A stretch of 64,000 nt of DNA from a virus (IMGVR_UViG_3300042987_002978:40852-104851), one strand, 5' to 3'. Positions 1-46,570 are shown, counted from the stretch's first letter. Numbers and translations are program-made. Notes: a model not told the origin generated them from the sequence alone.

Positions 1-3000
1 TGTTGCTCCAGGACCCTTGCCTCCACTGCTTGTGACCGTGGCATTGACGCTTACATTCAGACGCAACGGCGATTTATCAAGCGCATCTTGTGCGGCCGTT
101 TGAATAGCCTTGAAAATTGTCGGTCCTAGCGACTTTAGATTTTGATACATCTCGCTTTTTTCATCGAGAAGACCTTTTGACAAATCAGTGAAGTTTGCAC
201 CGATTGAGGCGGTCAAGGCGCTGACACTTCCACCTGTTTTGACGATGTTGGCAAATACTCCATCCGGACCATAAAGATTTTGGTCGAACAGTCCTTTTGT
301 CGTTGTTATGTTATTGCCGAGCGTCGAGACGTATCCACCGACTGTTGATGTGTACCCACCAAGGCCTTTAACACTTTCGCCAAGATTGAACAAATCACTG
401 TTGCCGACTTGAAGTTTTCCGCTCGCTATCCCGGTAGCAGCAGCAAGGTCGTTATAAACCTTTCCAAGTTCCGCGTGATTTATGTAAAGAAGAGCAGCGG
501 CTTCTTGCACGTCTTGATATGCGCTAAGAATGTTCACCGTTGCGCCGGCAAGATTCAACTGTTTGTTTTCTAGTTCTACAGTTGCGTCTATAAATCCGTT
601 TTGCGCACCGAGAACATCATCGCTCACTTCTGATGCTGCAGCCCTTGCTTCGTAAAGGGCGATTTCTGCATCGACAAGTTCCGTGTAGGACAGGCGGCCC
701 ATTGCATAATCACGCGACGCGCGCTCGAACTCAATTTGTAATTGGTCAATTCTGGATTGTTCATATCCAGTGACCTCTGCTCCGCCACCCATCCCGTAGC
801 GGGTCTCTGCATATTGCTGTTCGCGAGCGGCTTTCTTCCGTCGAGACTCAAGACCGCGTTGCATGTTTATCAATTTGGCAAGGTCTGTTTGTGCTTTGCG
901 AAAATCTAGTTGTGACCTGATGTAATCACCAAGCGAGCCAATGATGTCTTTCATCCGACCAATGGTTTCTTTAACAAAATCCGCTGCCGGAGTCTCCACA
1001 TCTCCCTTCTTCTCCAAGAAGTCTTTGTAGAACTTGTTTGCACCCTTTCGCCCACCTGATTTGTATGCCTTATTAACTGCTTCCGCAAGTGACTTTTCAA
1101 TCGCCCTGCCTGAACGACCGCCCATTTCGTCTTTGAAACCCTTTGCAAAACCTTGCGCAGTGGGAACACCGACTTCCTTTGCCATGACTGCCGACGGGCT
1201 CTTGATTCCAAGGCGAATCTTGAGGCGAGCAATGACATCGTTGCCCAAAGCGTCAATGGCCTTGCTTACTGCTGGTCGACCGTTTTCTATACCGCGTGAC
1301 ATTCCGTCGGTCAGCGCAGTTCCAATCAATTCTGCTTTTGTGCCAGCAACATCTTCCGTGTCTTGCGCTCCGAGAAGTGTGTCAAGCATTTGCGGACCAA
1401 AATTATGGAGTTCAAAGAATGCCATGATGTCTTCTTCTTTGAGGCCTGCGGCGATTCCGGTTCCCAATATTTGCGTCATTCCTTGACCAAGTGCAGCCGC
1501 AGCACCCTCTTCATCCATTTGGGCTGCATAAGTATTTACAACTTCAAGAACGGCGTCCATTGAGTCAAGGAGGGCGGCTTTTGCCTTGTCCGCCGCTTCC
1601 GTTCCGGCAAAAAGGTCTCCACCGGCACTCTTTGCATCATCTCCAAGGTCTCGTATTGAGGAACGGTAATCGATTTGCGCTTCGGTCATGTCCCTTGCAA
1701 GACCCATGAGCGCTTCTTGCCCGCGCTGGAATTCTTTTATTGCGTTTGTCGCGGCATCGTATTCAGTGACGAGGTCGCGAATACTCAGGGCATAACCTTG
1801 CGAGAACCTGTCTTCTAGCCCAGATATGACAGTGTCAAGAGTTTGATGCTGTGTGGTTACGCCTTTTGCGCTTGCCTTGAATTCATCATAAACTTTGCGG
1901 AAGCGAGTGAATGCCTCCGTGTTTCCACGGGCATTTGTCTCGACCCCCTTCATCGCGTCTTGTAACTTCTTATAAACCGCCTGTACCTCAGTGTTGTCTG
2001 TTACGCCAAACGTATTCTTGATGAAGTCTTCAGCCGCAGATTTGTTTTTATCCGAAAACTGCTCATTGAATATATTGGCGAGGTTTCCAGTTGAGTCTCC
2101 GACAAGGTCAAATTTGTCTTTAAGGCCAGTAAGTGCAGAACCGACGATGTCCGAAATGGCCATAGATTGGTCGTGTGCTTTCACTCCAGCCTTTGTCCAT
2201 GCGTCCTGGAATTTGCTGATTGTCTCTACCAGGGGGTTAAGTTGTCCTGTGTCTTGGATGCCTTGCGTAAATGCCTTTCCGTATTCAACTGCCGCATCGT
2301 AATATCCAGAGACGTCAGTCCCCTTGGCGAACGCCGCTGCCTGTTCTTCAAGTGAGCCAAAAGGATTGAAAATGTTTGCAAAGTCAGTGCCACGAGATGC
2401 ATCTTCTGCCGCGACGCTGGCAACTTGAATCAAGCCGTCTGTCAACGTGTCACCGGTACGATTCTTGACTGCTCCGGCAGTTACTTGTTGAGGTGTGAGT
2501 TTAAGTGTGTCGGTGAAAAAGTTGACAAAGTTGTCTTTCAGTTCTTGTGTGTTGCCGCCTAAACTCGTCGCTGCCAATCCGCGCACGTATGCCGCTGCGT
2601 ATTCTTTGCCTTGCGTGTCCGCAATTTTCTTAATTGTTGCGATTAGGCCAGGAGAGGATTCTTCAAGTTCTTTTTCTAACTGAGCGTTTATGTCTTCGCG
2701 TTTTGACGTTGTAAAGTCGACCTGAATATCGAATATGATTCCAGTACGTCCAAATTTTGCGGTTTCATTCAATAATTCTTTGACTTTTGTTACTCCATCA
2801 GACACGCTTTCAAGCGCATCGGAGCCATCGTTTTTGAACTTATTGAACACCCACTTGAAGGCCATGAAGCCAAGGTATAAAGCAGTTATTCCCATCATTA
2901 TCGGGCCCATAACAGACATCAGCGTGCCCATCGCTGTTGTCAAATAATAAACTGAGGTTCCGGCAATCCTTACGGTAGAGGCCAAAAATCCAGTAGCGGT

Positions 3001-4437
3001 TGTCCATGTTCCTGTCGCTGCCGCTGCCGTTCCGGTTGCGCCGGCAGCAGTTGAAGTTGCGGCTGTATATTTCAACACCTCACCAGTGGCTGCGTTGTAC
3101 TGGAATTGTTGACCGAACAACATCATGTTTGTCTGCGCGCCAAGACGAACGAATGCCGACATTGTTTTCATCACCATCGCAAGAGCAGATGTCATTATCA
3201 CCAAACCAGTGACGACGTATGTCAACACCTTGCCAACGCCACTGCCAAACACCTTTGAGAATCCCTTGGCTATCATTGTCCCTGCTTTGAGAAAAACCTG
3301 AACAACTGGCTTTAGCGCGTCGCCAAGTTGAATCAAAGCAGCCTGTTGTTCCGCAAGCGCTCTGTTGAAATCGGCATCTATCGTTTCTTGATATGTCTTA
3401 AAGGCGTAGTCAAGGTCGCCTGTCGATGCGGCCATTCGCTCAAAAATCTTTTCATTTTCTTCTGCTGCCGGACCGACAAGTGACAAAACTGCGGTGAGCG
3501 CTCGGACGTTACCGAAGACTTTCGTAAAGTCTCCTGCTTGTTCAATTCCTCCGATTGCGTCGCGTAATTCAATGAGTGCAGCAAACAGACCTTTTTCGCG
3601 GACATTTTGTCTGATTTCGTCAGCGCTTGTTCCGACGCCCTTTAAGACTTCTTGTGCCTGTTTTGACGGTTTTAGCAACTGCGACAAAGTTTGACGAACA
3701 TAAATTGCCGCAGTACCTGCCGACAAACCGCCTCTTGATAGGGCGGCAATGGCGGCTGATACGTCTTCAAATGATGCACCATATGCTGCCGCCACTGGCA
3801 ACACTTTGCCCAGAGCAGGAGCGAATGTATCGGCTTCCGCTTTACCTTCTCGCACCGTTGCCACAAGCACGTCTGTCGCTCTCGCAGCAGACATATTTGC
3901 GACTCCGTAGGCGTTCATGGTCGACGTGACTGCATCGGCAACCGTGTTGGTAGTACCGAGGCCTGCTGCGGCAGCCTTTGCCGAAGACTCAAGAACTTCT
4001 AGGGCGATGTTTGCATCTTTGATACCGGCTGATGTGATGTAGTAAAGAGCATCAGCAAGTTCAATCGGTGCCCTGGTAGTTTCTCCCGCCAAGGAAAGAA
4101 CCTTTTTCTTCATCAGGTCCAATGAGTCGCCAGTTACTACCACCAATCCCTTGATGCGATTGAACGAAAGTTCGAATTGGCGAGACATCTGAATCGCTTG
4201 CTTGCCAGCATTCACAAATACGCCGACGACCGTATATTTGATGAGTGATGCGGTCATTCGCATTGCGTCGCCGAGAGTTCGTGCGCTTATCGTGCCAACG
4301 CCCAACCCTTTTGCCATACCACCAGAAGCAGCAGTAACTGCGCCCATGCTGCGGGCTGCAGTCGTAGCACCAGTGGTTGTGATGCGAACTTGGATGTTTA
4401 GCGGCGGCATTCCGCCTGTTCCTGCTGCTGCTGGCAT
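1..4437 (-). CDS. Tail tape measure protein (TP901-type core), 3' end outside window
   Basis: Not in the ORF track, which implies no stop in the window. My translation of the 5' part from ATG 4437 gives MPAAAGTGGMPPLNIQVRI...ELADALYYITSAG...ATDVLVATVREGKAEADTFAPALGKVLPVAAAYGASFEDVSAAIAALSRGG, the typical TMP core. It lies directly downstream of the tail chaperone. Confidence 0.93.
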   Translation of the reverse strand, partial: MPAAAGTGGMPPLNIQVRITTTGATTAARSMGAVTAASGGMAKGLGVGTISARTLGDAMRMTASLIKYTVVGVFVNAGKQAIQMSRQFELSFNRIKGLVVVTGDSLDLMKKKVLSLAGETTRAPIELADALYYITSAGIKDANIALEVLESSAKAAAAGLGTTNTVADAVTSTMNAYGVANMSAARATDVLVATVREGKAEADTFAPALGKVLPVAAAYGASFEDVSAAIAALSRGGLSAGTAAIYVRQTLSQLLKPSKQAQEVLKGVGTSADEIRQNVREKGLFAALIELRDAIGGIEQAGDFTKVFGNVRALTAVLSLVGPAAEENEKIFERMAASTGDLDYAFKTYQETIDADFNRALAEQQAALIQLGDALKPVVQVFLKAGTMIAKGFSKVFGSGVGKVLTYVVTGLVIMTSALAMVMKTMSAFVRLGAQTNMMLFGQQFQYNAATGEVLKYTAATSTAAGATGTAAAATGTWTTATGFLASTVRIAGTSVYYLTTAMGTLMSVMGPIMMGITALYLGFMAFKWVFNKFKNDGSDALESVSDGVTKVKELLNETAKFGRTGIIFDIQVDFTTSKREDINAQLEKELEESSPGLIATIKKIADTQGKEYAAAYVRGLAATSLGGNTQELKDNFVNFFTDTLKLTPQQVTAGAVKNRTGDTLTDGLIQVASVAAEDASRGTDFANIFNPFGSLEEQAAAFAKGTDVSGYYDAAVEYGKAFTQGIQDTGQLNPLVETISKFQDAWTKAGVKAHDQSMAISDIVGSALTGLKDKFDLVGDSTGNLANIFNEQFSDKNKSAAEDFIKNTFGVTDNTEVQAVYKKLQDAMKGVETNARGNTEAFTRFRKVYDEFKASAKGVTTQHQTLDTVISGLEDRFSQGYALSIRDLVTEYDAATNAIKEFQRGQEALMGLARDMTEAQIDYRSSIRDLGDDAKSAGGDLFAGTEAADKAKAALLDSMDAVLEVVNTYAAQMDEEGAAAALGQGMTQILGTGIAAGLKEEDIMAFFELHNFGPQMLDTLLGAQDTEDVAGTKAELIGTALTDGMSRGIENGRPAVSKAIDALGNDVIARLKIRLGIKSPSAVMAKEVGVPTAQGFAKGFKDEMGGRSGRAIEKSLAEAVNKAYKSGGRKGANKFYKDFLEKKGDVETPAADFVKETIGRMKDIIGSLGDYIRSQLDFRKAQTDLAKLINMQRGLESRRKKAAREQQYAETRYGMGGGAEVTGYEQSRIDQLQIEFERASRDYAMGRLSYTELVDAEIALYEARAAASEVSDDVLGAQNGFIDATVELENKQLNLAGATVNILSAYQDVQEAAALLYINHAELGKVYNDLAAATGIASGKLQVGNSDLFNLGESVKGLGGYTSTVGGYVSTLGNNITTTKGLFDQNLYGPDGVFANIVKTGGSVSALTASIGANFTDLSKGLLDEKSEMYQNLKSLGPTIFKAIQTAAQDALDKSPLRLNVSVNATVTSSGGKGPGAT

Positions 4438-37455: not shown

Positions 37456-38724
37456 TCAGGGCGCGCTGTCGAATTCGACTTCGACGAACGACTCCGGACG
37501 CTTGACAGCAAGAGCAAGACGCTCTTCGGCCAGAATCGCAACTGCGTTCCGGATGAAGAAGTCGCTGTGCTGCTCGGCGACGCGGATGTTGCCTTCCATG
37601 CGGTCGTACAGCGTGGCGCCGATACCGAACGCACCCACGAGAGCGAAGCCCTCAGTGATGGCCGGAGTGGCAACCATCGGCAGACGCCACAGGCGAGCCT
37701 CGGCACCCATCGAGACGGACATGACCATCAGGTGACGGTCCTCTCCATCCTTCGTGAGTTCGAGGTCTTCCATGTCGTTCGGGTGAACGATGATGCCTGT
37801 CGGCTCGTAGTACGCGAGCAGCGACTTGGTGATACCGCGACGGATTGCGTCGATGCGGGTGTCACCAGTGACGCCATCGCTCCAGGCCTGAGTCTGGATG
37901 CCCGAGGTCTCACGGATGCCGGTCAGGTTCGAACCTGTGCCGTCGCCGTTGAGAATCTGGTCATCTTCGACAAGGCGGAGGCCGTACAGCAACTCGTTGT
38001 CGATGATGCCACGGAGTGTGGGCTCATCGTCAAGCACGTTGCGGTGGGCAACCTCGTAGTGGGCGATTGTGCGGACCGGAGCCTGCACACCCACGACTGT
38101 CATGGACGACTGCGGCTTGGCTGTGAACACGGCGGGCGAACCCGAGCGCTCAGCAACTGTCGACGCGTTGTTGGTAAATCCGCTGACGCGGAAGTACTCA
38201 ATCATGTTGGTGTTGGTCTGCTGCACCGGGAACAGGTCGCGGACTCGCATGACGCGCTTGGCGCGCTCAACGATGCCTTCACGGACCGGCGAACCGAAGT
38301 CGCCAGGCGTGCCTGTGGGCAGTGCAGTGAAGATGTCCTTCACCTGGTACGGAGCATGCATGGTGTAGCCATTGCGGCCATTGCTCATGCTCTTGAACTC
38401 ATCCGACTCGACGAAGCGCTGGCCGAGTGACTTCTTTTCGTCACCAGGCAAGTAGAGCGACTTCGGGGCAGCCGCGGCGGGAGCCGACGAACCGGCGGCC
38501 CAAGCCTTGACTTCCTGAAGACCCTCAAGGGCCTCAATCTCTGCACGGATTTCGCGCGCCTTGGCAAGTCCCGAACGGAACGCCTCGACGTGCTTTGCTT
38601 CAACTTGAACTTCAGGGCCGCCCTCTTCACGGTTGGCCTCGACATGGTCGACGATAGCGTCGTTCTGTGCGAGGACATCCTTGAGTGCACCCTTAAGTTC
38701 CTTCAAACGGCTATCCATAGCCAT
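37456..38724 (-). CDS. Major capsid protein, HK97 fold with N-terminal delta domain
   Basis: VRDLFP, EDDQILNGDGTG.NL.GI, HP.D..L.L.KD, F.RN.V.ILAEERLAL.V.RP.SF. Confidence 0.95.
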   Translation of the reverse strand: MAMDSRLKELKGALKDVLAQNDAIVDHVEANREEGGPEVQVEAKHVEAFRSGLAKAREIRAEIEALEGLQEVKAWAAGSSAPAAAAPKSLYLPGDEKKSLGQRFVESDEFKSMSNGRNGYTMHAPYQVKDIFTALPTGTPGDFGSPVREGIVERAKRVMRVRDLFPVQQTNTNMIEYFRVSGFTNNASTVAERSGSPAVFTAKPQSSMTVVGVQAPVRTIAHYEVAHRNVLDDEPTLRGIIDNELLYGLRLVEDDQILNGDGTGSNLTGIRETSGIQTQAWSDGVTGDTRIDAIRRGITKSLLAYYEPTGIIVHPNDMEDLELTKDGEDRHLMVMSVSMGAEARLWRLPMVATPAITEGFALVGAFGIGATLYDRMEGNIRVAEQHSDFFIRNAVAILAEERLALAVKRPESFVEVEFDSAP

Positions 38725-38827: not shown

Positions 38828-39127
38828 CTATTCGTCTTCTTCGTCGTTTTTGTCTTCCTCTTCCAAGAAGGCGTCAAACAGGTTGTCAATCATCGTCACC
38901 GAATTGGCATTGAACGGTTCGACCAGTACGTTGCCCTTAAAGGTGATTTTTGGGGCCGGGGTGGCAGCCCTAAGGATTGAGGCAACCTTGTCAAGAACCG
39001 CAGAAGCAACGAATGGGGGTATCGAGCCGAGGTCTACGTGAATCGGCTCGTCCATATCGTCATGGGATACGGAAATCGTGATTACTGGGAACTGAATGTC
39101 ACCATCGTCCTGAAAATCAGGCCTCAT
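38828..39127 (-). CDS. Hypothetical acidic protein (99 aa)
   Basis: Start MRPDFQ overlaps the end of the phosphoesterase gene. Confidence 0.6.
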   Translation of the reverse strand: MRPDFQDDGDIQFPVITISVSHDDMDEPIHVDLGSIPPFVASAVLDKVASILRAATPAPKITFKGNVLVEPFNANSVTMIDNLFDAFLEEEDKNDEEDE

Positions 39128-40301
39128 ACTCGACACCCCTGAAGATGCCCCTCCCGTTGTAAATCCACATCTGCTCGTAGTTGAACCACTCTTCCTTGAC
39201 GCCCTTGGGCTGGTATTGGACCACGGCAAGGCCTTGCTGCCAGTTCTCTGCACCCTGCATCAATGGACGACCGAATTCGTCAGAGCCAGACTTGGTTGAA
39301 GGAACTGCTCCGTCAATCCTGCACAAGCAACCAGGGCTGGCGGCCATGATTGTGCGCGGACCCGCCTCAGAGACTCGCGTCCGATAAGCAACCTCGACTC
39401 GGTGAATGTGTCCGTAGATGACCGACTTGTGTGCGTCGTTCAAATACTTCGTCGTAGTTGAGCCATTCGAAGTGACCCTGTCTCCGTGCCTGATGATGAG
39501 ATTCTCGTTCAGGGCCAGGAAGGATTCCGGATACCCAGACAGATACTCAATTTGGAATTCGTCCATGCGACAAAGATTCGGGACTGACAAAACCGGCCAG
39601 TTGTCCCGCAGTTCGTCGTTCAGTTTCCCGCGCGTAAGACCGAATGCCGCCTCGGCGTTCATCTGCACGTATCGGGCAAGTCGCGCCTCGTGGTTGCCGG
39701 CAATCCATGTAATCTTCGCGCTTGGCGCAGCGGCACGGATTTGCGCGCACAACAAAGTTGCGCGGTCAATCGTGGCCTGTGTCAGTTGCTTGAATGTCGG
39801 GGCAGTCAAATACTTGCCGAACTCTGCGAAGTCAAGATTGTCGCCCAACAACACCACTTGGTCTGGGTTCATGTCTTGGACAAGTTTCAAAGCGATGGAG
39901 ATTGCCTTTTCGTCGTGAATCGGCTCCAGGTGCGCATTCTGCTCAAGGGACTTTTTGTAGTAGCCCATTTGCATGTCAGGCAAGATGACTGCTGTTTCCC
40001 ACTCTTTTGTCTTGCGTGATTTGGCCTTGATTTTTGGAATGTTGTACTTGGGACCAGGAACGATTACCGGCCATTCCGGACCCGAATCCCACTTGGGGCT
40101 GAGAACCAGGCTCGCGCCGCGAAGGTCATGAATTTGTGCTTCGCCAGCCTCGTCTTTTGTGACCGTCTGCCATTTGCCGACTTTCATCGATTTGATTGAA
40201 CCGACCTCTTCTGGCTTGATGTTGTGTTCCTTCAGCAGTTTCGCGACTGCCTCTATGTGTGATTTCTCGGACACTTTATTTATGTCGTCTGACAATGGCA
40301 T
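39117..40301 (-). CDS. Calcineurin-like metallophosphoesterase
   Basis: PDMQ, LLGD, GNHE, HG, GHIH motifs. GGAGG RBS before MPLSDD. Confidence 0.85.
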   Translation of the reverse strand: MPLSDDINKVSEKSHIEAVAKLLKEHNIKPEEVGSIKSMKVGKWQTVTKDEAGEAQIHDLRGASLVLSPKWDSGPEWPVIVPGPKYNIPKIKAKSRKTKEWETAVILPDMQMGYYKKSLEQNAHLEPIHDEKAISIALKLVQDMNPDQVVLLGDNLDFAEFGKYLTAPTFKQLTQATIDRATLLCAQIRAAAPSAKITWIAGNHEARLARYVQMNAEAAFGLTRGKLNDELRDNWPVLSVPNLCRMDEFQIEYLSGYPESFLALNENLIIRHGDRVTSNGSTTTKYLNDAHKSVIYGHIHRVEVAYRTRVSEAGPRTIMAASPGCLCRIDGAVPSTKSGSDEFGRPLMQGAENWQQGLAVVQYQPKGVKEEWFNYEQMWIYNGRGIFRGVEYEA

Positions 40302-40303
40302 GA

Positions 40304-40558
40304 TTATTTCCCTCCAAGAGTGTTTGTAGTGCGAAGTGTTATCCCATTTGCTCTGCGCCATTGGTTGATTGCCCAGCAGCCGCATTCAATTTTGTTTTTG
40401 CGCAGAACTCGCTCTATTGCGCGAGTTGGAACGTCAGGGTCTAACAAAGCCTTCTTCAGGCTCTCGGCATCTTTCTTGTTCAGAGATGCAAGAAGATTGT
40501 CGACCTTCAGCGATTGATGCTGCTTGGTCTCCGATTTACATTCCTCGTAAAAGTCCAT
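40304..40558 (-). CDS. Small basic protein coupled to phosphoesterase
   Basis: 84 aa, helical, GGAGG RBS. Confidence 0.65.
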   Translation of the reverse strand: MDFYEECKSETKQHQSLKVDNLLASLNKKDAESLKKALLDPDVPTRAIERVLRKNKIECGCWAINQWRRANGITLRTTNTLGGK

Positions 40559-40609: not shown

Positions 40610-42055
40610 TTACTGCTTGGTGATTTCCTTAAGCAGGTTGTGGAACTCTTTGAGTTCGTCGAACGAAATCGATGCTTTGGCTTCGACGACCGGCTGCTCT
40701 TCGGCTGGTGTCTCTTCCGCCTTCGCCTCTTCCGTCACGACTTCTTCCGCCTTGACCTCTTCAGTCAATGTCTCGGTTGCAGGTGTCTCTTCGACTGATG
40801 TTTCTTCAACTGCAGCAACGACATCTTCTGCCTTGACTTCCTCGACGACTGTTTCTTCTGCAACGGGAGTCTCTTCGACGACATCGGACTTCTCTTCGCT
40901 GTCCAACTCTGCGAGACGCTTCAGAACTTCAGCGTTCTGCTCGATAACACGCTTGACAAGCGCGCTGAACTCTGGGTCGATGCTCTTCATTGCTGTCTCC
41001 TCATCATCTTCTTCTTCACTATCGTAGTCATCTTCGCCGTCCCCAGTGGGCAAGGCTTCCTCTACCGTCAGGCCGTCGCCTCGGGCGACGACAGTGACGT
41101 TGGTTGAGTGCCATTCGCCCTCTGATTTGGCCGATTTTGAGGACTCTTCCATGTCCTCGTCGTCCTCGGGCTCCTCTTCCTCCTCGTACTCTTCTTTCAT
41201 CCAGACCCTGATAACAAAGGCCGGATTGTCTTCCGAACCCTCGATTTCAAGGCCTTGAGGCTCGCCGCGGGCCATGCCATCTGTAACGACCTCCACCACG
41301 TCCCCGTAGTACTTGCCCTTTGAGGTGTCCCAAGAGACGATTGCACCCTTTTCGGGCATGCCATCGGCCTTTTCCATGACGACGAACGTGCGGAGTTTTA
41401 TTTCTGCGTAATCCAGTTCGTAAAACTCGCCGGTCCTGGCATCCTTTTCGTCAATCTGCTCGACCAAAGCGACATCATCATCGGCCTCGACAACGATGCC
41501 CTTGAACTCTTGGTCCCCTTCCATCCAAGAGACATCGCTCTCGACGTCAATGATGTTGTCCAAATCCTCTAGGCCCTTAACGGTCAAATCCAAGGTCTCA
41601 GCAAGCGGGGCGTCGATGAGGCCCTTGAACATCATGATTGCGTCCACGTCCTCATCGGACTTGAGTTCTGGTGCCTCTCGGTCGGCGTCTTTGTAGTGGG
41701 CTGCAATGTGGCGATATACGCCCTGTCGTGCCGCACCGCGGAGAACAGTCCCTTGACGCCCACCATTCAGGACAGCAACCGAGTTTGCCAATGCGCGGCC
41801 TGATGCCTCTCCGGCAGCGCCGTCTGAGCCGACAAAATGATGGATGAAGGAATAATGAGTCTTTCGGGTTCCCTTTGTGTTGGGGAGTTGGAACGCAAAA
41901 ATATCGTTGTAGTAACTAGGGGTGGCCGGCGAGCGCATTTTCTTGAATTGCGCAGTGCGGTCCCAAGCAGAACTCAAATCGACTGAAGTGGAATGAACCG
42001 GAACAACACGACCGTTCGGCCCGGTTTCCTTCAGTTCAACTTCTTGTTCACTCAT
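40610..42055 (-). CDS. Multidomain head protein/scaffold-like, sharing two domains with the protease
   Basis: N-terminal domain duplicates the protease C-terminal domain. Tudor-like V.W..S.G..G domain. Acidic C-terminal tail. Confidence 0.7.
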   Translation of the reverse strand: MSEQEVELKETGPNGRVVPVHSTSVDLSSAWDRTAQFKKMRSPATPSYYNDIFAFQLPNTKGTRKTHYSFIHHFVGSDGAAGEASGRALANSVAVLNGGRQGTVLRGAARQGVYRHIAAHYKDADREAPELKSDEDVDAIMMFKGLIDAPLAETLDLTVKGLEDLDNIIDVESDVSWMEGDQEFKGIVVEADDDVALVEQIDEKDARTGEFYELDYAEIKLRTFVVMEKADGMPEKGAIVSWDTSKGKYYGDVVEVVTDGMARGEPQGLEIEGSEDNPAFVIRVWMKEEYEEEEEPEDDEDMEESSKSAKSEGEWHSTNVTVVARGDGLTVEEALPTGDGEDDYDSEEEDDEETAMKSIDPEFSALVKRVIEQNAEVLKRLAELDSEEKSDVVEETPVAEETVVEEVKAEDVVAAVEETSVEETPATETLTEEVKAEEVVTEEAKAEETPAEEQPVVEAKASISFDELKEFHNLLKEITKQ

Positions 42056-44342
42056 CTGTGTCTGCTTTCGTCAACGGTTCTTTGATGTAACCGGCCTTAA
42101 TCATCAGATTATCCAGTTCTTCGTCAGACTTCAGAGAAGGTGGGGTTGTCCCTCCGTCTCGGTAGTGACGAGCAAGATGATTGTATACCGCTTTGCGGTC
42201 TGCACCGCGCAACACAGTACCACCGCGAGCACCGTTCAGGACTGACATTTGAACGCGAAGTTCTGACATTGCTGCTGCGCCGGGTCGTCCGTCTTCTGAG
42301 ATGTGGTGATGAATGAAGGTGTAATGGGTCTTGCGTGTTCCGTCAGTCTTTGGCAACTGATAAGCGAAAATCTTTCTGTAGTAATCTGGAGTCTCCGGCG
42401 AGCGAACTGCCAAGATTGCGCTTCTATTTATCGGAGTATCATCACGAACTGCCGTTGAATGGCTGCGAATCGGCCCGCCATCTGCTTTCGCCTCGATGGC
42501 GTCCCAGTCGATTCCTTCGTCGCTTTGCTCCCACTCATCAATGGCGGCAGCATAAGACTTCATATCGTTCCACTGAACAACTCCGTCAGGGATAACAGCA
42601 AAACGGCACTTGCCGTTTTCGTTGACCCTTTGCTTGATGATTGCGCAAACCCCGTCGCCCTGGTACAAAGTGCAGTTTGCACACTTGACGCCGATGCTCT
42701 TTTCGTCATTTTCTGCCGGGCTTTCGTACCCTGCCCAGATTCCAGAACCATCTTCGTCGAATTTTCCGTGCTCGTCAGCGATTCGGACGAGAGCATCATG
42801 AAGTGCCTGCTCATCGGCAGTCAGGTTCGGATGCATCCTGCCATGGTCTTGCGCCTTTGACTCAATATCGGCATCTTCCGACTTCGGAGCCTCTGCTGCG
42901 TACAGGGCAGACATGTGCCGCCGCGCCTCGGCAAGTGTTTCGTGGCAGCCGCCTGGAACGGGACTGTTTTCCCCTTCTTTCACTACTGCGTATCCACTGC
43001 ATCCCTGCATGTTTCGCGAGATGCGATATGGCTTGCCTTCTTCGGTGCGGCGGCGGCGGCGGCGCGGTTGACGACCGACGACTCCGGGGCGCTGCGGAGT
43101 CCCAAATGAACCCGGCGCGCCTTCCGGCATGTCTGTGTAAAGGTCTTTTGTCGGGTCCTGGATTTTCGTCAGTGTGGAAAATTTGTGTCCGACCATGGTG
43201 TCCGTGGGAACCCACTGGTTTCCTTCTTCGCGATAAACACGAATCATTGCCGCCGGGTCTTCAGGGGTGGCGGTGACTGTGAAACTGCTGTCCGGGATGC
43301 GCATGCGCCCCCTGCGCATTATGCGAGTTATCTTTCCTCGCGCACGTCCGCCAGAAGAATTCCAAATCACGAAGTCTCCGACTTTAAGGTCACCTGGTTC
43401 TGCTTTGATTCCAAGGGCCTTCATTTCGTCGCGACGATTCATTGCCTCTACGAGTTTTGTGGACCATGTACGTCCAGCATCACCGCCCCACAATTTCCAG
43501 GCGATGAGTCCTGCGCCGGGATAACCATCTGCTCCTGGCCTGCTGTTTGCCGGAGTACGCAGGTCGACTTCATGCCGCGGGAAATATTTTGCGATGTGCC
43601 GCACCTTGCGGGGTGCTGCAGTGTTGTTGTTGATGAGATAGTTGGCGGTGTTCTTTCCAACCGACGTACCTCCGCGATTGTATTCACGCGACCATTTCAG
43701 CCCGATTTCGGCTTGCTTCTTCACGCCGGAGGGAATCGAAAAATTAAGGTCTGAGTAGTCTCCAGCCTTTTCTTCGTCAAAATCATCGAACTCGTCGTAA
43801 ATTTCTTCTTCGTTGGACTCAATTTCATTAATGTCGTCCTTGACGCTAAGTGTTCGCGTGTTCGGGGCGGCACCGAAAATGACCGGTGAATACTCGTAAA
43901 GTTCGAGAGCCTTGATAAACCGGACGCCAGTTTTTTCGTCTGTGGTGGACTTTCCTTCTGGAACCGAATAACCGATTGACCACTCCTGCTCTTCGGCAAA
44001 AAATTGGACGTCATGGAACGCATCTCGCCCACGACTTGTGTTCAGGTTGAATTGCATCTTGACGAGAAGAGCACCTGCGCCCTGCTGGCGCAAATCTTCC
44101 GGCAACCTTTCATCGCCAGGCATCAATTCCTCCACCTTCAATGTCTTAGCGACAGGAATGTTCGTGTCGTGCGACCACACGCCTTTCGGATTTCGCTTTC
44201 GCAGCGTATTCTTGTAAGCGCCCGGCTCGATGACATCGTTTACCGAGTCAACGACATTTGTGACGGAGACGATTGCCTCCACGATTCCATCTGCTTCGCT
44301 CAAGCCGCGAACCGATGAAACTGGAACGTTCTTGCGGTCCAT
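42048..44342 (-). CDS. HK97-type prohead protease fused to several accessory domains
   Basis: VDSVNDVIEPGA, WSHD, WSIGY, LYEYSPVIFGA in the first ~170 aa. About 590 further aa of modules. Confidence 0.9.
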   Translation of the reverse strand: MDRKNVPVSSVRGLSEADGIVEAIVSVTNVVDSVNDVIEPGAYKNTLRKRNPKGVWSHDTNIPVAKTLKVEELMPGDERLPEDLRQQGAGALLVKMQFNLNTSRGRDAFHDVQFFAEEQEWSIGYSVPEGKSTTDEKTGVRFIKALELYEYSPVIFGAAPNTRTLSVKDDINEIESNEEEIYDEFDDFDEEKAGDYSDLNFSIPSGVKKQAEIGLKWSREYNRGGTSVGKNTANYLINNNTAAPRKVRHIAKYFPRHEVDLRTPANSRPGADGYPGAGLIAWKLWGGDAGRTWSTKLVEAMNRRDEMKALGIKAEPGDLKVGDFVIWNSSGGRARGKITRIMRRGRMRIPDSSFTVTATPEDPAAMIRVYREEGNQWVPTDTMVGHKFSTLTKIQDPTKDLYTDMPEGAPGSFGTPQRPGVVGRQPRRRRRRTEEGKPYRISRNMQGCSGYAVVKEGENSPVPGGCHETLAEARRHMSALYAAEAPKSEDADIESKAQDHGRMHPNLTADEQALHDALVRIADEHGKFDEDGSGIWAGYESPAENDEKSIGVKCANCTLYQGDGVCAIIKQRVNENGKCRFAVIPDGVVQWNDMKSYAAAIDEWEQSDEGIDWDAIEAKADGGPIRSHSTAVRDDTPINRSAILAVRSPETPDYYRKIFAYQLPKTDGTRKTHYTFIHHHISEDGRPGAAAMSELRVQMSVLNGARGGTVLRGADRKAVYNHLARHYRDGGTTPPSLKSDEELDNLMIKAGYIKEPLTKADTDE

Positions 44343-44407: not shown

Positions 44408-46570
44408 CTAAGCAAACGACAATGTGCAGCGGCAGTTGATTACCGAAGTTCCGTCTCCCACAAAATCGCCGGGAAAGCGAACTGACTTACCTTCAATGTC
44501 AAAATTGTCGTCAATCGCAATCGTCACATTGGAAACGTGATGGTGCTCCGCGCGGCCGTCTTCGTCGTTTGAATGCACCCATGTCTTCTTGGTGTAACCA
44601 AGTTGACGTGCAGCCCAGAGAAGTCCCGCGTTGAAGGCACCTGACACCTCGGTCCTCACGATTGTTTTAATTCTCTTCGAGAAAGAATCTGACATCCATT
44701 TTGTCAGTTCGGCGACGAATGAAGCGTGCGGGCGGCCGGCGAAGGCGTCGAGCATCTTCTGCATGTTTACCTTGGTCGTCTGGTTAACGAGCAGCAGATT
44801 GCTAAGCCTGTCGGCAATCAACTCCTGGACCGCCTTGCCCTGCATGTCCAACTTGTCAAAGCCTTCTCCGGCGATATCAATTGCGCCGTCAAGGAACACG
44901 GCGGAAATCCATGTCTTTCCGTCGGTCTCCAACTGTCCGTTCCAGACCTCGATATCGAAAAAGTCGTCAACTTCAATCTTCTCGCCGGAGTCCCAGCGCT
45001 CCTTCATTTTCTTTGAGCCGGCCTTCTCCATGACCACTCGTTGCTGGCGCTTGAAGTACGAGGCGATTTGCAAAGTCACGCTGGCTTCGAGCCTGTCCAA
45101 TTGACGAGTCCTGCGCTGGATGTTCGTCGTTTCTTTTGTCGACTCCGGCTCGGGAGCAGACAGTTCCGACATTGCCGGAGCAAAAATGGGCCGCGGGCTT
45201 GGGTCGTTGGTGTTATCGGTGTCGATTCGTGGCGAAGATGGAGCGTTGGCTGCTCCCATCGGAACCGCCTCATCCGGGGCGTCGTTCGGTCGGCGACCAG
45301 GATTCTGGTTCGGGTTCACTCTTTCGCCCGGCTGCGTCCCGCTGCCGTCAGTCGACATGACGACAGGCGACAAGTTCGTCGGGACGAGCAAGTCGTCCAT
45401 TCCGACGCCTTCGCGGCCGGTCAGTTCACGGTACTCATCGATGCTGATTGCGCCTTGCTTGAGTTCCTCAAGATGGAATTTTGCACGCTCGCGGTCGTCG
45501 CGGCTGAGGATTGCAACAGATGAAAGGTCGTAGGAGAAGTATGTGTTCGGCTTGTCGTCGAGGATGTCAAAAGCACGCTCAAGAAGAGTGAGGTGCGGAA
45601 GCATCGTTTCGCGCCAGAACACTTCGAGTTCGACGTCGGCGTTGGCGAACGTGCGACCAGAAGCGTTTCCGATTACGGACTCAGGAACACCAAAAGCAAG
45701 AAGAATTTCTTCTTTGTTCTGGGTTCGCGCCTCGGTGTATTGAGCATCTCGTTGGTTGACGGCAGTGTCGATGAAACTTGCGTCTTCTGCCGAGAGAACG
45801 GTGATTCTTCCCGCTCCGCCAATGTTTGAACCTGTGGTGCCGCGGAATCTGCGGGCGATTTCCTCGCTCTGCTCTTCTTCCATGTCGCCCTTGATGACCA
45901 ACATCCCGCCTGGACGTCCGTCGTTGATGACGAAGTTGCGGTTGTAGACGCGTGAGTAATAATCAAACTCAATGGCAAGACCGGCAGACTCAAGCGGTGT
46001 CTGGCCTTTGTACGGGTCAATCGGGTGCGGCACGCGAATCCACAGCATGTTCTCTGGTTCGACAATCTTGCGCGGAGTGTTGGGATATTCAACCGCATAG
46101 CCGGACACGTATTTGACCGGGTCCGGGATTGGGAAAACGTATTGCGGCTGGTGCAAGAAAAGCGAAGTCACATCGCCGAGCCTGTTGCGCGTAACTTCTA
46201 CGTACGCACCTTTCTTTGACAAAAGAACCTGAGAAGAAAGCATGAACCTGAAAGAGAAGGCATCTGTCGTGCTGTTGGGGCGGCGATTCAACAATTCCAG
46301 AACTGGCTCGTCCCAGGTCAGTTCGCCGATTCTCCAGTCATCCATGCGCATACCTATTGGCAAAGATGCGGCATTCGAGGCGATTGCGTAAACGGCTTTG
46401 TAGACCCACACCACGCGGTCAAGGGCTTGATTGATTCCGCGCTCTACGTCCCACCCGTCTTTGTACGGCTCACCCGGGCGGCTGTACCCGGTGGTTGCGT
46501 AACGCTTTTTCTCGCCCAGCCCGACGAAGCCGTCAGCGCCTGCTCTTGTAAAGGTCTTGAAGAATGCCAC
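44408..46570 (-). CDS. Portal protein fused to MuF-like minor head domain
   Basis: LLNRRPN, G.TPLE, PGG.L, EEI..AFGVP. C-terminal RTEV..AFN..KTW..R..H..FPGD..INCRC. Confidence 0.92.
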   Translation of the reverse strand: MAFFKTFTRAGADGFVGLGEKKRYATTGYSRPGEPYKDGWDVERGINQALDRVVWVYKAVYAIASNAASLPIGMRMDDWRIGELTWDEPVLELLNRRPNSTTDAFSFRFMLSSQVLLSKKGAYVEVTRNRLGDVTSLFLHQPQYVFPIPDPVKYVSGYAVEYPNTPRKIVEPENMLWIRVPHPIDPYKGQTPLESAGLAIEFDYYSRVYNRNFVINDGRPGGMLVIKGDMEEEQSEEIARRFRGTTGSNIGGAGRITVLSAEDASFIDTAVNQRDAQYTEARTQNKEEILLAFGVPESVIGNASGRTFANADVELEVFWRETMLPHLTLLERAFDILDDKPNTYFSYDLSSVAILSRDDRERAKFHLEELKQGAISIDEYRELTGREGVGMDDLLVPTNLSPVVMSTDGSGTQPGERVNPNQNPGRRPNDAPDEAVPMGAANAPSSPRIDTDNTNDPSPRPIFAPAMSELSAPEPESTKETTNIQRRTRQLDRLEASVTLQIASYFKRQQRVVMEKAGSKKMKERWDSGEKIEVDDFFDIEVWNGQLETDGKTWISAVFLDGAIDIAGEGFDKLDMQGKAVQELIADRLSNLLLVNQTTKVNMQKMLDAFAGRPHASFVAELTKWMSDSFSKRIKTIVRTEVSGAFNAGLLWAARQLGYTKKTWVHSNDEDGRAEHHHVSNVTIAIDDNFDIEGKSVRFPGDFVGDGTSVINCRCTLSFA

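Follow-up and report, generated by a model that had tools for sequence, protein, structure and literature searches.

In phage lambda (C/Nu3), phage P2 (gpO) and the herpesviruses (UL26/UL26.5), an N-terminal protease of the assemblin type is followed by scaffold and then by a C-terminal end that binds the capsid, and the chain is cut by its own protease. The HK97-type proteases are the most common capsid-maturation enzymes, and the C-terminus of the HK97 protease is reportedly what targets it into capsids. For the gp4 protease of HK97 and the maturation of its capsid protein gp5 at the delta domain, the reference is Duda, Oh and Hendrix (2013), cited in PMC12749128. The subject of the present analysis is a pair of adjoining genes, P0001 and P0002, in a 64,000-nucleotide (nt) stretch of an uncultured phage (IMGVR_UViG_3300042987_002978:40852-104851, hereafter the window), itself part of an IMG/VR virus record of 104,851 bp. 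P0001 opens with a prohead protease of the HK97 type and continues, together with P0002, as a chain of modules set off from one another by Lys motifs, for which the consensus over relatives is Glu-x-Lys/Ala. From their sequences, the two proteins together appear to constitute a head-assembly polyprotein which cuts itself and from which the folded modules are released as internal head proteins, a reading to which we assign a probability of roughly 0.55.

Compared with HK97, the locus has the same protease family, the same order of portal, protease and capsid genes, a delta domain on the capsid protein and an aligned Lys (structures 3qpr and 1ohg). It differs in that gp4 is small and has a short tail, whereas here some 600 amino acids (aa) of modules and a second gene are attached. 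The likeness to the protease–scaffold fusions lies in minimal relatives of ~515 aa, which look to have that layout; the difference lies in the several folded, swappable and mostly basic modules which are placed in between, and in the distribution of the chain over two genes. Indeed, in the window the scaffold-like helix, the acidic run and the C-terminal helix are carried by P0002 and not by the protease protein, whereas in the ~515-aa relatives all are within one open reading frame (ORF).

In T4 (gp21, capsid-targeting sequence) and in phiKZ and SPN3US, head proteins are trimmed by a prohead protease (PMC9024508, PMC10052503, PMC7411985). The proposed common feature is that proteins destined for the head interior or for ejection enter the prohead and are trimmed at a short motif, but the gp21-type proteases cut after Glu, and their cargo genes are separate, each with its own propeptide. 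Cargo with a capsid-targeting sequence of the T4 type ([L/I]-x-E, gp21) was rejected for this locus, where the protease profile is S78 and the junctions are of the form E-x-K/A.

In polyvalent proteins, which combine two to 15 domains, an assemblin-like peptidase is rare and always C-terminal (Iyer, Burroughs, Anand, de Souza, Aravind 2017, PMC5512222). The chain resembles these proteins in having unrelated, shuffled domains on one polypeptide, a head-gene context and an embedded peptidase of the kind proposed as releaser (PMC5512222). It differs in that the peptidase is N-terminal here and the window modules are small, and in that neither the Glu-x-Lys/Ala code nor a copy of the capsid cut site is given in PMC5512222; in the open-access literature we found no description of either for a prohead protease chain. 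The hallmark conflict domains (MPTase, ArdC-N, helicases, ARTs) are absent from P0001 and P0002 at Pfam E <=1. With these domains absent and the peptidase N-terminal, the chain is not a typical polyvalent protein. The system works like a protease–scaffold fusion with a polyvalent-protein habit.

The chain is laid out as follows, where pI is the isoelectric point and pLDDT (predicted local distance difference test) the local confidence of the AlphaFold model.

42048-44342, minus strand: P0001, 764 aa, ORF of the prohead protease polyprotein.
43839-44342, minus strand: HK97-type (S78) prohead protease domain, P0001 1-168, ending LSVK168/DD (Pfam PF04586).
43767-43838, minus strand: acidic linker of variable length, P0001 169-192, ending EEK192/AG (pLDDT <50).
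43404-43766, minus strand: helical module A (13 kDa, pI 10), P0001 193-313, ending EMK308/A and GIK313/AE (pLDDT ~90, phrog_2859).
43146-43403, minus strand: Tudor/SH3-like barrel (9.6 kDa, pI 10), P0001 314-399, ending PTK399/DL (PF11160, Hva1_TUDOR).
43032-43145, minus strand: copy of the capsid N-arm with a run of six Arg (4.3 kDa, pI 11.2), P0001 400-437, ending EGK437/PY (BLASTP; pLDDT <50).
42855-43031, minus strand: small alpha/beta module D (6.4 kDa), P0001 438-496, ending ESK496/AQ (pLDDT ~85 over 438-484).
42486-42854, minus strand: acidic four-Cys module (CxxC...C...C), P0001 497-619, ending EAK619/AD (conserved Cys).
42129-42485, minus strand: His-rich HST domain (13 kDa, pI 10.1), P0001 620-738, ending in an invariant LK738/SD (homology to P0002).
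42051-42128, minus strand: acidic amphipathic tail, P0001 739-764 (predicted helix 740-750; conserved SD..D..M..G.I..PL).
40610-42055, minus strand: P0002, 481 aa, ORF of the next gene, which continues the module chain.
41660-42055, minus strand: leader to ELK9/ET and second HST domain to ELK132/SD, P0002 1-132 (HST homology).
41369-41659, minus strand: tail helix and small beta module, P0002 133-229, ending MEK229/AD (strands 174-215, pLDDT ~80).
40985-41368, minus strand: second Tudor-like barrel, with an acidic loop, P0002 230-357, ending AMK357/SI (AlphaFold; Hva1_TUDOR 22.9 bits).
40676-40984, minus strand: long helix, then an acidic low-complexity stretch, P0002 358-460 (AlphaFold; E-x-K/[AS] sites).
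40613-40675, minus strand: conserved C-terminal helix (ISFDELKEFHNLLK type), P0002 461-481, a candidate capsid-binding peptide (pLDDT 82-86).

The two ORFs overlap by 8 nt. The N-terminal domain of P0001 is a clear member of the Peptidase S78 family. Peptidase_S78 (PF04586) matches residues 19-174 at 50.1 bits against a cut-off of 21 (E 4.6e-13), the domain matches phrog_80 (E 2e-31), and its predicted fold is similar to those of T4 gp21 (5jbl; Z 10.9, root-mean-square deviation 2.8, 126 residues aligned) and of the protease of the herpesvirus VZV (varicella-zoster virus; Z 8.2). Two residues that never vary among 42 homologues, H58 (WSHD) and S122 (WSIGY), are candidates for the catalytic His and Ser. 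The original prediction, which was made from the sequence alone, had a protease of about 170 aa heading the chain, and this agrees with an S78 domain of ~168 aa (Pfam, phrog_80 and fold) followed by six modules.

The same prediction had listed twelve Lys motifs as module borders. All are present, in P0001 at K168 (SVK/DD), K192 (EEK/AG), K313 (GIK/AE), K399 (PTK/DL), K437 (EGK/PY), K496 (ESK/AQ), K619 (EAK/AD) and K738 (SLK/SD), and in P0002 at K9 (ELK/ET), K132 (ELK/SD), K229 (MEK/AD) and K357 (AMK/SI); together with the capsid motif QVK/DI, they stand at modelled inter-domain linkers. In the AlphaFold models each proposed Lys is within a low-confidence linker, or at the edge of one, between confident domains. 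For P0001 the confident domains are 16-164, 194-310, 322-395 and 438-484, with a weaker one at 640-759, and the low-confidence linkers are 165-193, 403-436, 485-508 and 521-638. For P0002 the confident units are 168-220, 232-338, 358-388 and 461-481, with linkers at 221-231 (pLDDT <50), 339-357 and 388-460. Single domains are confident in this sense within models of low overall confidence (predicted template modelling score 0.29 for P0001 and 0.25 for P0002).

The position of the Lys is conserved where the linker around it is not. Across 42 diverse homologues there is no substitution at K168 or K738, and conservation is 90% or higher at both K399 and K619, in linkers that otherwise vary. In front of seven unrelated module types, a Lys is found no more than seven residues upstream of the first conserved residue in 89-100% of distinct junctions; the E-x-K/A junction is common to these types, among which are independently inserted modules and a Dps/ferritin module. 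The consensus over 264 distinct junctions, drawn from homologues that share ancestry, has Glu at P3 (61%), and at P1' either Ala (52%), Asp (25%) or, less often, Pro (9%). The codons used differ from one junction to another, and therefore the constraint acts on the protein; DNA microhomology as the source of the motif is ruled out on the same grounds. Compared with shuffled sequences, the motif E.K[ADS] occurs five times in P0001 (0.74 expected), six times in P0002 (1.26) and three times in the capsid protein (0.29). Taken over 41 long ORFs of the window, the motif is thus found 14 times in these three proteins, which total 1667 aa, against five times in 14,903 aa elsewhere, a 25-fold higher density for which the Fisher p of 7e-11, like the other p-values for this motif, is indicative only because the motif was defined after inspection of the data. 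Three of the five occurrences elsewhere are in a single ORF of 1479 aa (1-4437, minus strand), which is open at the window edge.

The junction signal has its counterpart in the capsid protein, the gene for which is located downstream in the same direction.

37456-38724, minus strand: HK97-fold capsid protein with an N-terminal delta domain (Pfam Phage_capsid).
38338-38724, minus strand: capsid delta (scaffold) domain, residues 1-129 (EVK73/A, EKK/S, EFK111/S and terminal QVK129/DI).
37459-38337, minus strand: predicted mature HK97-fold capsid protein, residues 130-422 (Pfam Phage_capsid 147-417).

That QVK/DI marks the end of the delta domain, as had been proposed, is in keeping with the HMMER alignment, in which capsid K129/D130 falls on K103/S104 of HK97 gp5; the mature HK97 protein starts at residue 104, since the full-length protein has 385 aa and the mature one 282 aa. 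Related capsid proteins, 37 in number, all keep the sequence K-D-[IV]-[YF]-T, directly after a variable insert. All three E.K[ADS] motifs of the capsid protein are in its delta domain and none is in residues 130-422. Moreover, residues 398-432 of P0001 are a copy of capsid residues 128-162, comprising the cut site, the start of the N-arm and the basic run (BLASTP, 49% identity, E 8e-8). Such a pairing of capsid site and polyprotein copy is found in 20 distinct locus pairs. In one locus the capsid site reads K/A and its polyprotein copy reads K/S, such that both have a P1' residue other than Asp. Since a Lys followed by a small residue marks both the module junctions and the predicted maturation cut of the capsid protein, the chain is probably cut into small head proteins within the young capsid.

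Gain or loss of modules exactly at the Lys sites in homologues had been set beforehand as a test, and the insertions and deletions do map to the Lys linkers. An exhaustive search gave 7625 proteins at E <=0.001, and the P0001 alignment holds 120 homologues of 442-1019 aa. Its large insertions or deletions are at 307-398, 402-489 and 497-616, with further insertions at 173-192 (positions 177 and 189) and 610-614 (position 614), and E-x-K-A immediately precedes each inserted or kept module. Within the 169-192 linker, relatives have insertions of 65 and 124 aa with E-x-K-A on each flank, and the insertion at 610-614 is an extra HST domain of 123 aa. The Tudor module (314-399) is missing from some relatives or is exchanged for another module, the four-Cys module is precisely deleted (497-616) in two homologues (P0105 and P0108), and in other relatives a P0002-type HST copy is found inside the protease ORF, between EVK/DA and EVK/AA. 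Homologues of P0002 have likewise lost or moved HST or Tudor modules, and the conserved helix always ends the chain. Elsewhere, A, Tudor, D and four-Cys are arranged differently, with no protease in the chain, or with the protease at its C-terminus, and the joints are K/A or R/A. Stand-alone homologues of module D start with M-P-[YW], which is exactly the neo-N-terminus predicted at K437/P438. Overall, the picture is one of shuffled domains in a virion-gene context, with seven segments in P0001 and five in P0002, the order and content of which vary in homologues.

The border between the two genes is no more fixed than the modules. In the minimal relatives (~515 aa) a single ORF leads from the protease through one HST domain, the tail, a coiled region and an acidic run to the conserved C-terminal helix; the pair P0001 and P0002 is therefore one such chain, expanded and split. 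In some relatives the first gene has two HST copies and the second none, and therefore the gene border shifts by one module.

As a mechanism, the chain would co-assemble into the procapsid, probably by way of the conserved C-terminal helix, HST pairing or both; P0001 itself might enter through HST–HST pairing or its N-arm copy. The protease, thus concentrated, would then cut after Lys at the Glu-x-Lys/Ala/Asp/Ser linkers, as it would at the K129/D130 bond of the capsid protein. With sites every 10-30 residues, the delta domain and the P0002 acidic tail would give peptides of 1-4 kDa able to leave, and the folded modules would be freed as separate internal head proteins of 6-14 kDa. Considered step by step, cutting at most of the junctions is likely on the sequence evidence, and given cutting, it is probable that the modules are kept as internal head proteins; their ejection into the host is only a tentative proposal. 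Giant relatives in which the same protease is followed by ArdC and helicase modules lend indirect support.

This modifies the original prediction in two respects. In that prediction the protease served as loading vehicle; the best-conserved candidate targeting peptide is in fact on P0002, although in the minimal relatives it shares an ORF with the protease. The prediction also had the chain cut into several small packaged proteins, and of this the cutting is backed by the sequence, but the acidic tail and the delta domain have the look of cut-up scaffold rather than of cargo.

The most serious alternative, albeit an unlikely one, accepts cutting at the Lys linkers and takes all the pieces to be for assembly only (nucleation, size control or filling of the shell), with none carried or ejected, all being degraded or expelled before or during DNA packaging, much as the HK97 protease and delta domain are degraded or expelled around packaging. 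The P0002 end is indeed scaffold-like, with its long helix, acidic run, C-terminal helix and dense sites, and the cultured relatives Cantare and ScarletRaider carry a protease with nothing more than an acidic scaffold-like tail with E-x-K/S sites. The window modules, moreover, are without known effector function in Pfam and PHROG. The capsid protein has a delta domain of its own, a further point on this side. However, where the scaffold-like parts are dense in sites, the interior of the folded 6-14 kDa modules is free of the motif. Four predicted products are strongly basic, with a pI of at least 10 (A, Tudor, the N-arm/poly-Arg piece and HST), as would suit a place beside DNA. The Dps/ferritin, ArdC and helicase modules of relatives have no obvious role in assembly, and folded domains of 10-14 kDa would be unlikely to pass through the shell pores.

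Rather less probable is that the protein is not cut at all, E-x-K-A being a matter of flexible-linker composition or a mark of shuffling, and that only the capsid delta domain is processed. Packaging without cutting has precedents among large virion proteins, such as the N4 virion RNA polymerase (reviewed in PMC5512222), and the giant relatives described below show no enrichment of the motif. Against this, the Lys keeps a fixed short distance ahead of the modules where the rest of the linker is variable, the synonymous codons vary at the junctions, contrary to DNA microhomology, and one linker copies the capsid cut site. The free order of modules, the gene border which shifts between relatives, and the presence of the capsid protein itself within the chain in ORFs of the CRP-811 type (see below) also speak against it. 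Least probable is that the 398-432 copy, perhaps with other linkers, is a pseudo-substrate which holds the active site in cis until assembly, the cut at that one site being an activation step and not a release of cargo, since, for all that a capsid cut-site copy within the protease's own chain and a P1' residue which changes together with that of the capsid in one informative locus would fit, the copy is missing from many relatives having the same protease, and the junction code before all the other modules is left unexplained.

A number of points nevertheless weigh against the self-cutting head polyprotein, in addition to the shared ancestry of the homologues and the late definition of the motif mentioned above. 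The cleavage specificity of S78 proteases is ill defined. No recognised effector or enzyme function was found for the window modules in Pfam, PHROG, the Atlas or a profile search of the PDB (Protein Data Bank), and in the giant relatives neither E.K[ADS] nor K-A is enriched, such that the linker code does not extend there. P0001, the protease protein, is without the conserved C-terminal peptide. Roughly half of the related loci lack the N-arm copy, which must therefore be counted a dispensable module. Individual sites are also questionable: K437 precedes Pro, and many serine proteases refuse Pro after the cut residue. In P0002, K357 is not conserved, being N, Q or D in some homologues, and K229 is within a conserved stretch, RTFVVMEK. 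The proposal that P0002 continues the Lys pattern of P0001 is therefore upheld in that the motifs are present and the modules move, and is weakened at these two sites.

Were the self-cutting reading true, Glu-x-Lys/Ala/Asp/Ser would be a readable cleavage code for HK97-type proteases, from which the mature head proteins of thousands of uncultured phages could be predicted from sequence. Internal proteins would be loaded without targeting sequences of the T4 type, by attachment to the protease/scaffold chain, small head polyproteins would be connected with giant polyvalent proteins and their anti-defence enzymes, and a simple design rule would be available for packaging foreign proteins into HK97-like shells. 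A wider proposal, more speculative and on balance doubtful, is that HK97-type prohead proteases head a general plug-in loading system, in which any module flanked by Glu-x-Lys/Ala, whether behind the protease or in the adjoining gene, would be carried into the procapsid and freed by the shell-maturing cut, the basic modules remaining beside the DNA and entering the host with it; the copy of the capsid site and N-arm would then be one signal of this system, and the giants would use the same chassis to carry anti-restriction and helicase modules.

The giant relatives are proteins of 2-4 thousand aa (P0137, P0139 and P0153) in which a protease of the same subfamily comes first, together with the four-Cys module. 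P0139 contains ArdC-N, MPTase-PolyVal, KTSC and sigma-70 region 4 domains, and P0153 contains ArdC-N, MPTase-PolyVal and a UvrD-type helicase. They count as polyvalent proteins as Iyer et al. (2017) use the term, but their assemblin-like peptidase is N-terminal, contrary to the statement in that paper. Because the four-Cys module is directly behind the protease in these giants, it may go with the protease and not be free cargo.

Module A is also found, at the N-terminus, in ORFs which include the capsid protein, in Roseobacter phage CRP-811 (gp45) and Synechococcus phage S-CBS3 (gp04). Here module A (with Tudor in CRP-811) is followed by a presumed protease and scaffold and then by the capsid protein, with R/A junctions. 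We take the protease to be present from its position and from a match to phrog_617; the module search of these ORFs did not detect it. Such an ORF would need to be cut because the capsid protein shares the chain, and mapping with the capsid profile located no capsid cut site in either phage. The likeness to the window thus consists of module A and a presumed S78 protease in one chain with junctions of a basic residue and Ala. The differences are that the capsid protein is the last bead, that the junction residue is mostly Arg, and that these are 30-kb phages.

With regard to the individual modules, the P0001 barrel (314-399) matches Hva1_TUDOR (PF11160) at 30.4 bits, the cut-off being 24.1, and resembles Tudor-type folds, including 4p5n, at Z ~6; the P0002 copy, at 22.9 bits, is slightly below the same cut-off. 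The HST domain of P0001 is 49% identical to P0002 14-153, and both copies (42129-42485 and 41660-42028, minus strand) have conserved polar residues (H, SP, Y, K, HH, LNG.R.GT, R, H...HY). The domain may hold a metal site or be an enzyme. It has no Pfam or PHROG match, no PDB match at E <=10 for a profile of 29 sequences, and in the Atlas only unnamed viral clusters; AlphaFold confidence is low in both copies. In the minimal relatives it is the sole globular domain apart from the protease. The four Cys of the four-Cys module (motif region 42589-42709, minus strand) are conserved, and AlphaFold confidence is low here too. An assignment to HiPIP (PF01355) was rejected as sub-threshold (15.1 bits, the cut-off being 22; E 0.029).

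A Foldseek search of the PDB with the whole P0001 model gave no match at E <=0.001, and a wide VIA structure search found a known fold only for the protease and Tudor domains and none for A, D, four-Cys or HST, which does not make these new folds, since they were searched within the whole model. In the acidic part of P0002 (358-460) there are five E-x-K/[AS] sites, K389, K408, K435, K445 and K460, at spacings of 10-32 residues, and in the C-terminal helix L468, K469, F471, L474 and K476 are invariant in 32 homologues. Two P0002 homologues (P0346 and P0350) have a Dps/ferritin-like module (PF00210) between EEK/A and EVK/S, which recalls the ferritin-like cargo of encapsulins.

Two further genes belong to the head-gene locus.

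44408-46570, minus strand: portal protein fused to a MuF-like domain (Pfam Phage_portal 56-384, Phage_Mu_F 621-717).
39117-40385, minus strand: metallophosphoesterase (phrog_20266, E 1e-69).

The order portal, protease, next gene, phosphoesterase and capsid is also found in ~50 related IMG/VR loci. The place of the metallophosphoesterase between the polyprotein genes and the capsid gene is kept in these, minimal ones included; it has no E.K[ADS] motif. The junction between portal and MuF was considered as an additional cut site and ruled out, there being no motif at that point. The head-morphogenesis domain of the portal is MuF/SPP1-gp7-like, and in four related loci (L043, L053, L060 and L073) the portal and MuF parts are separate ORFs. 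A search of a phage collection for near-identical DNA gave no match; among cultured phages the nearest are the actinobacteriophages, namely Brevibacterium phage Cantare and phages of Gordonia, the capsid proteins of which are ~50% identical to that of the window.

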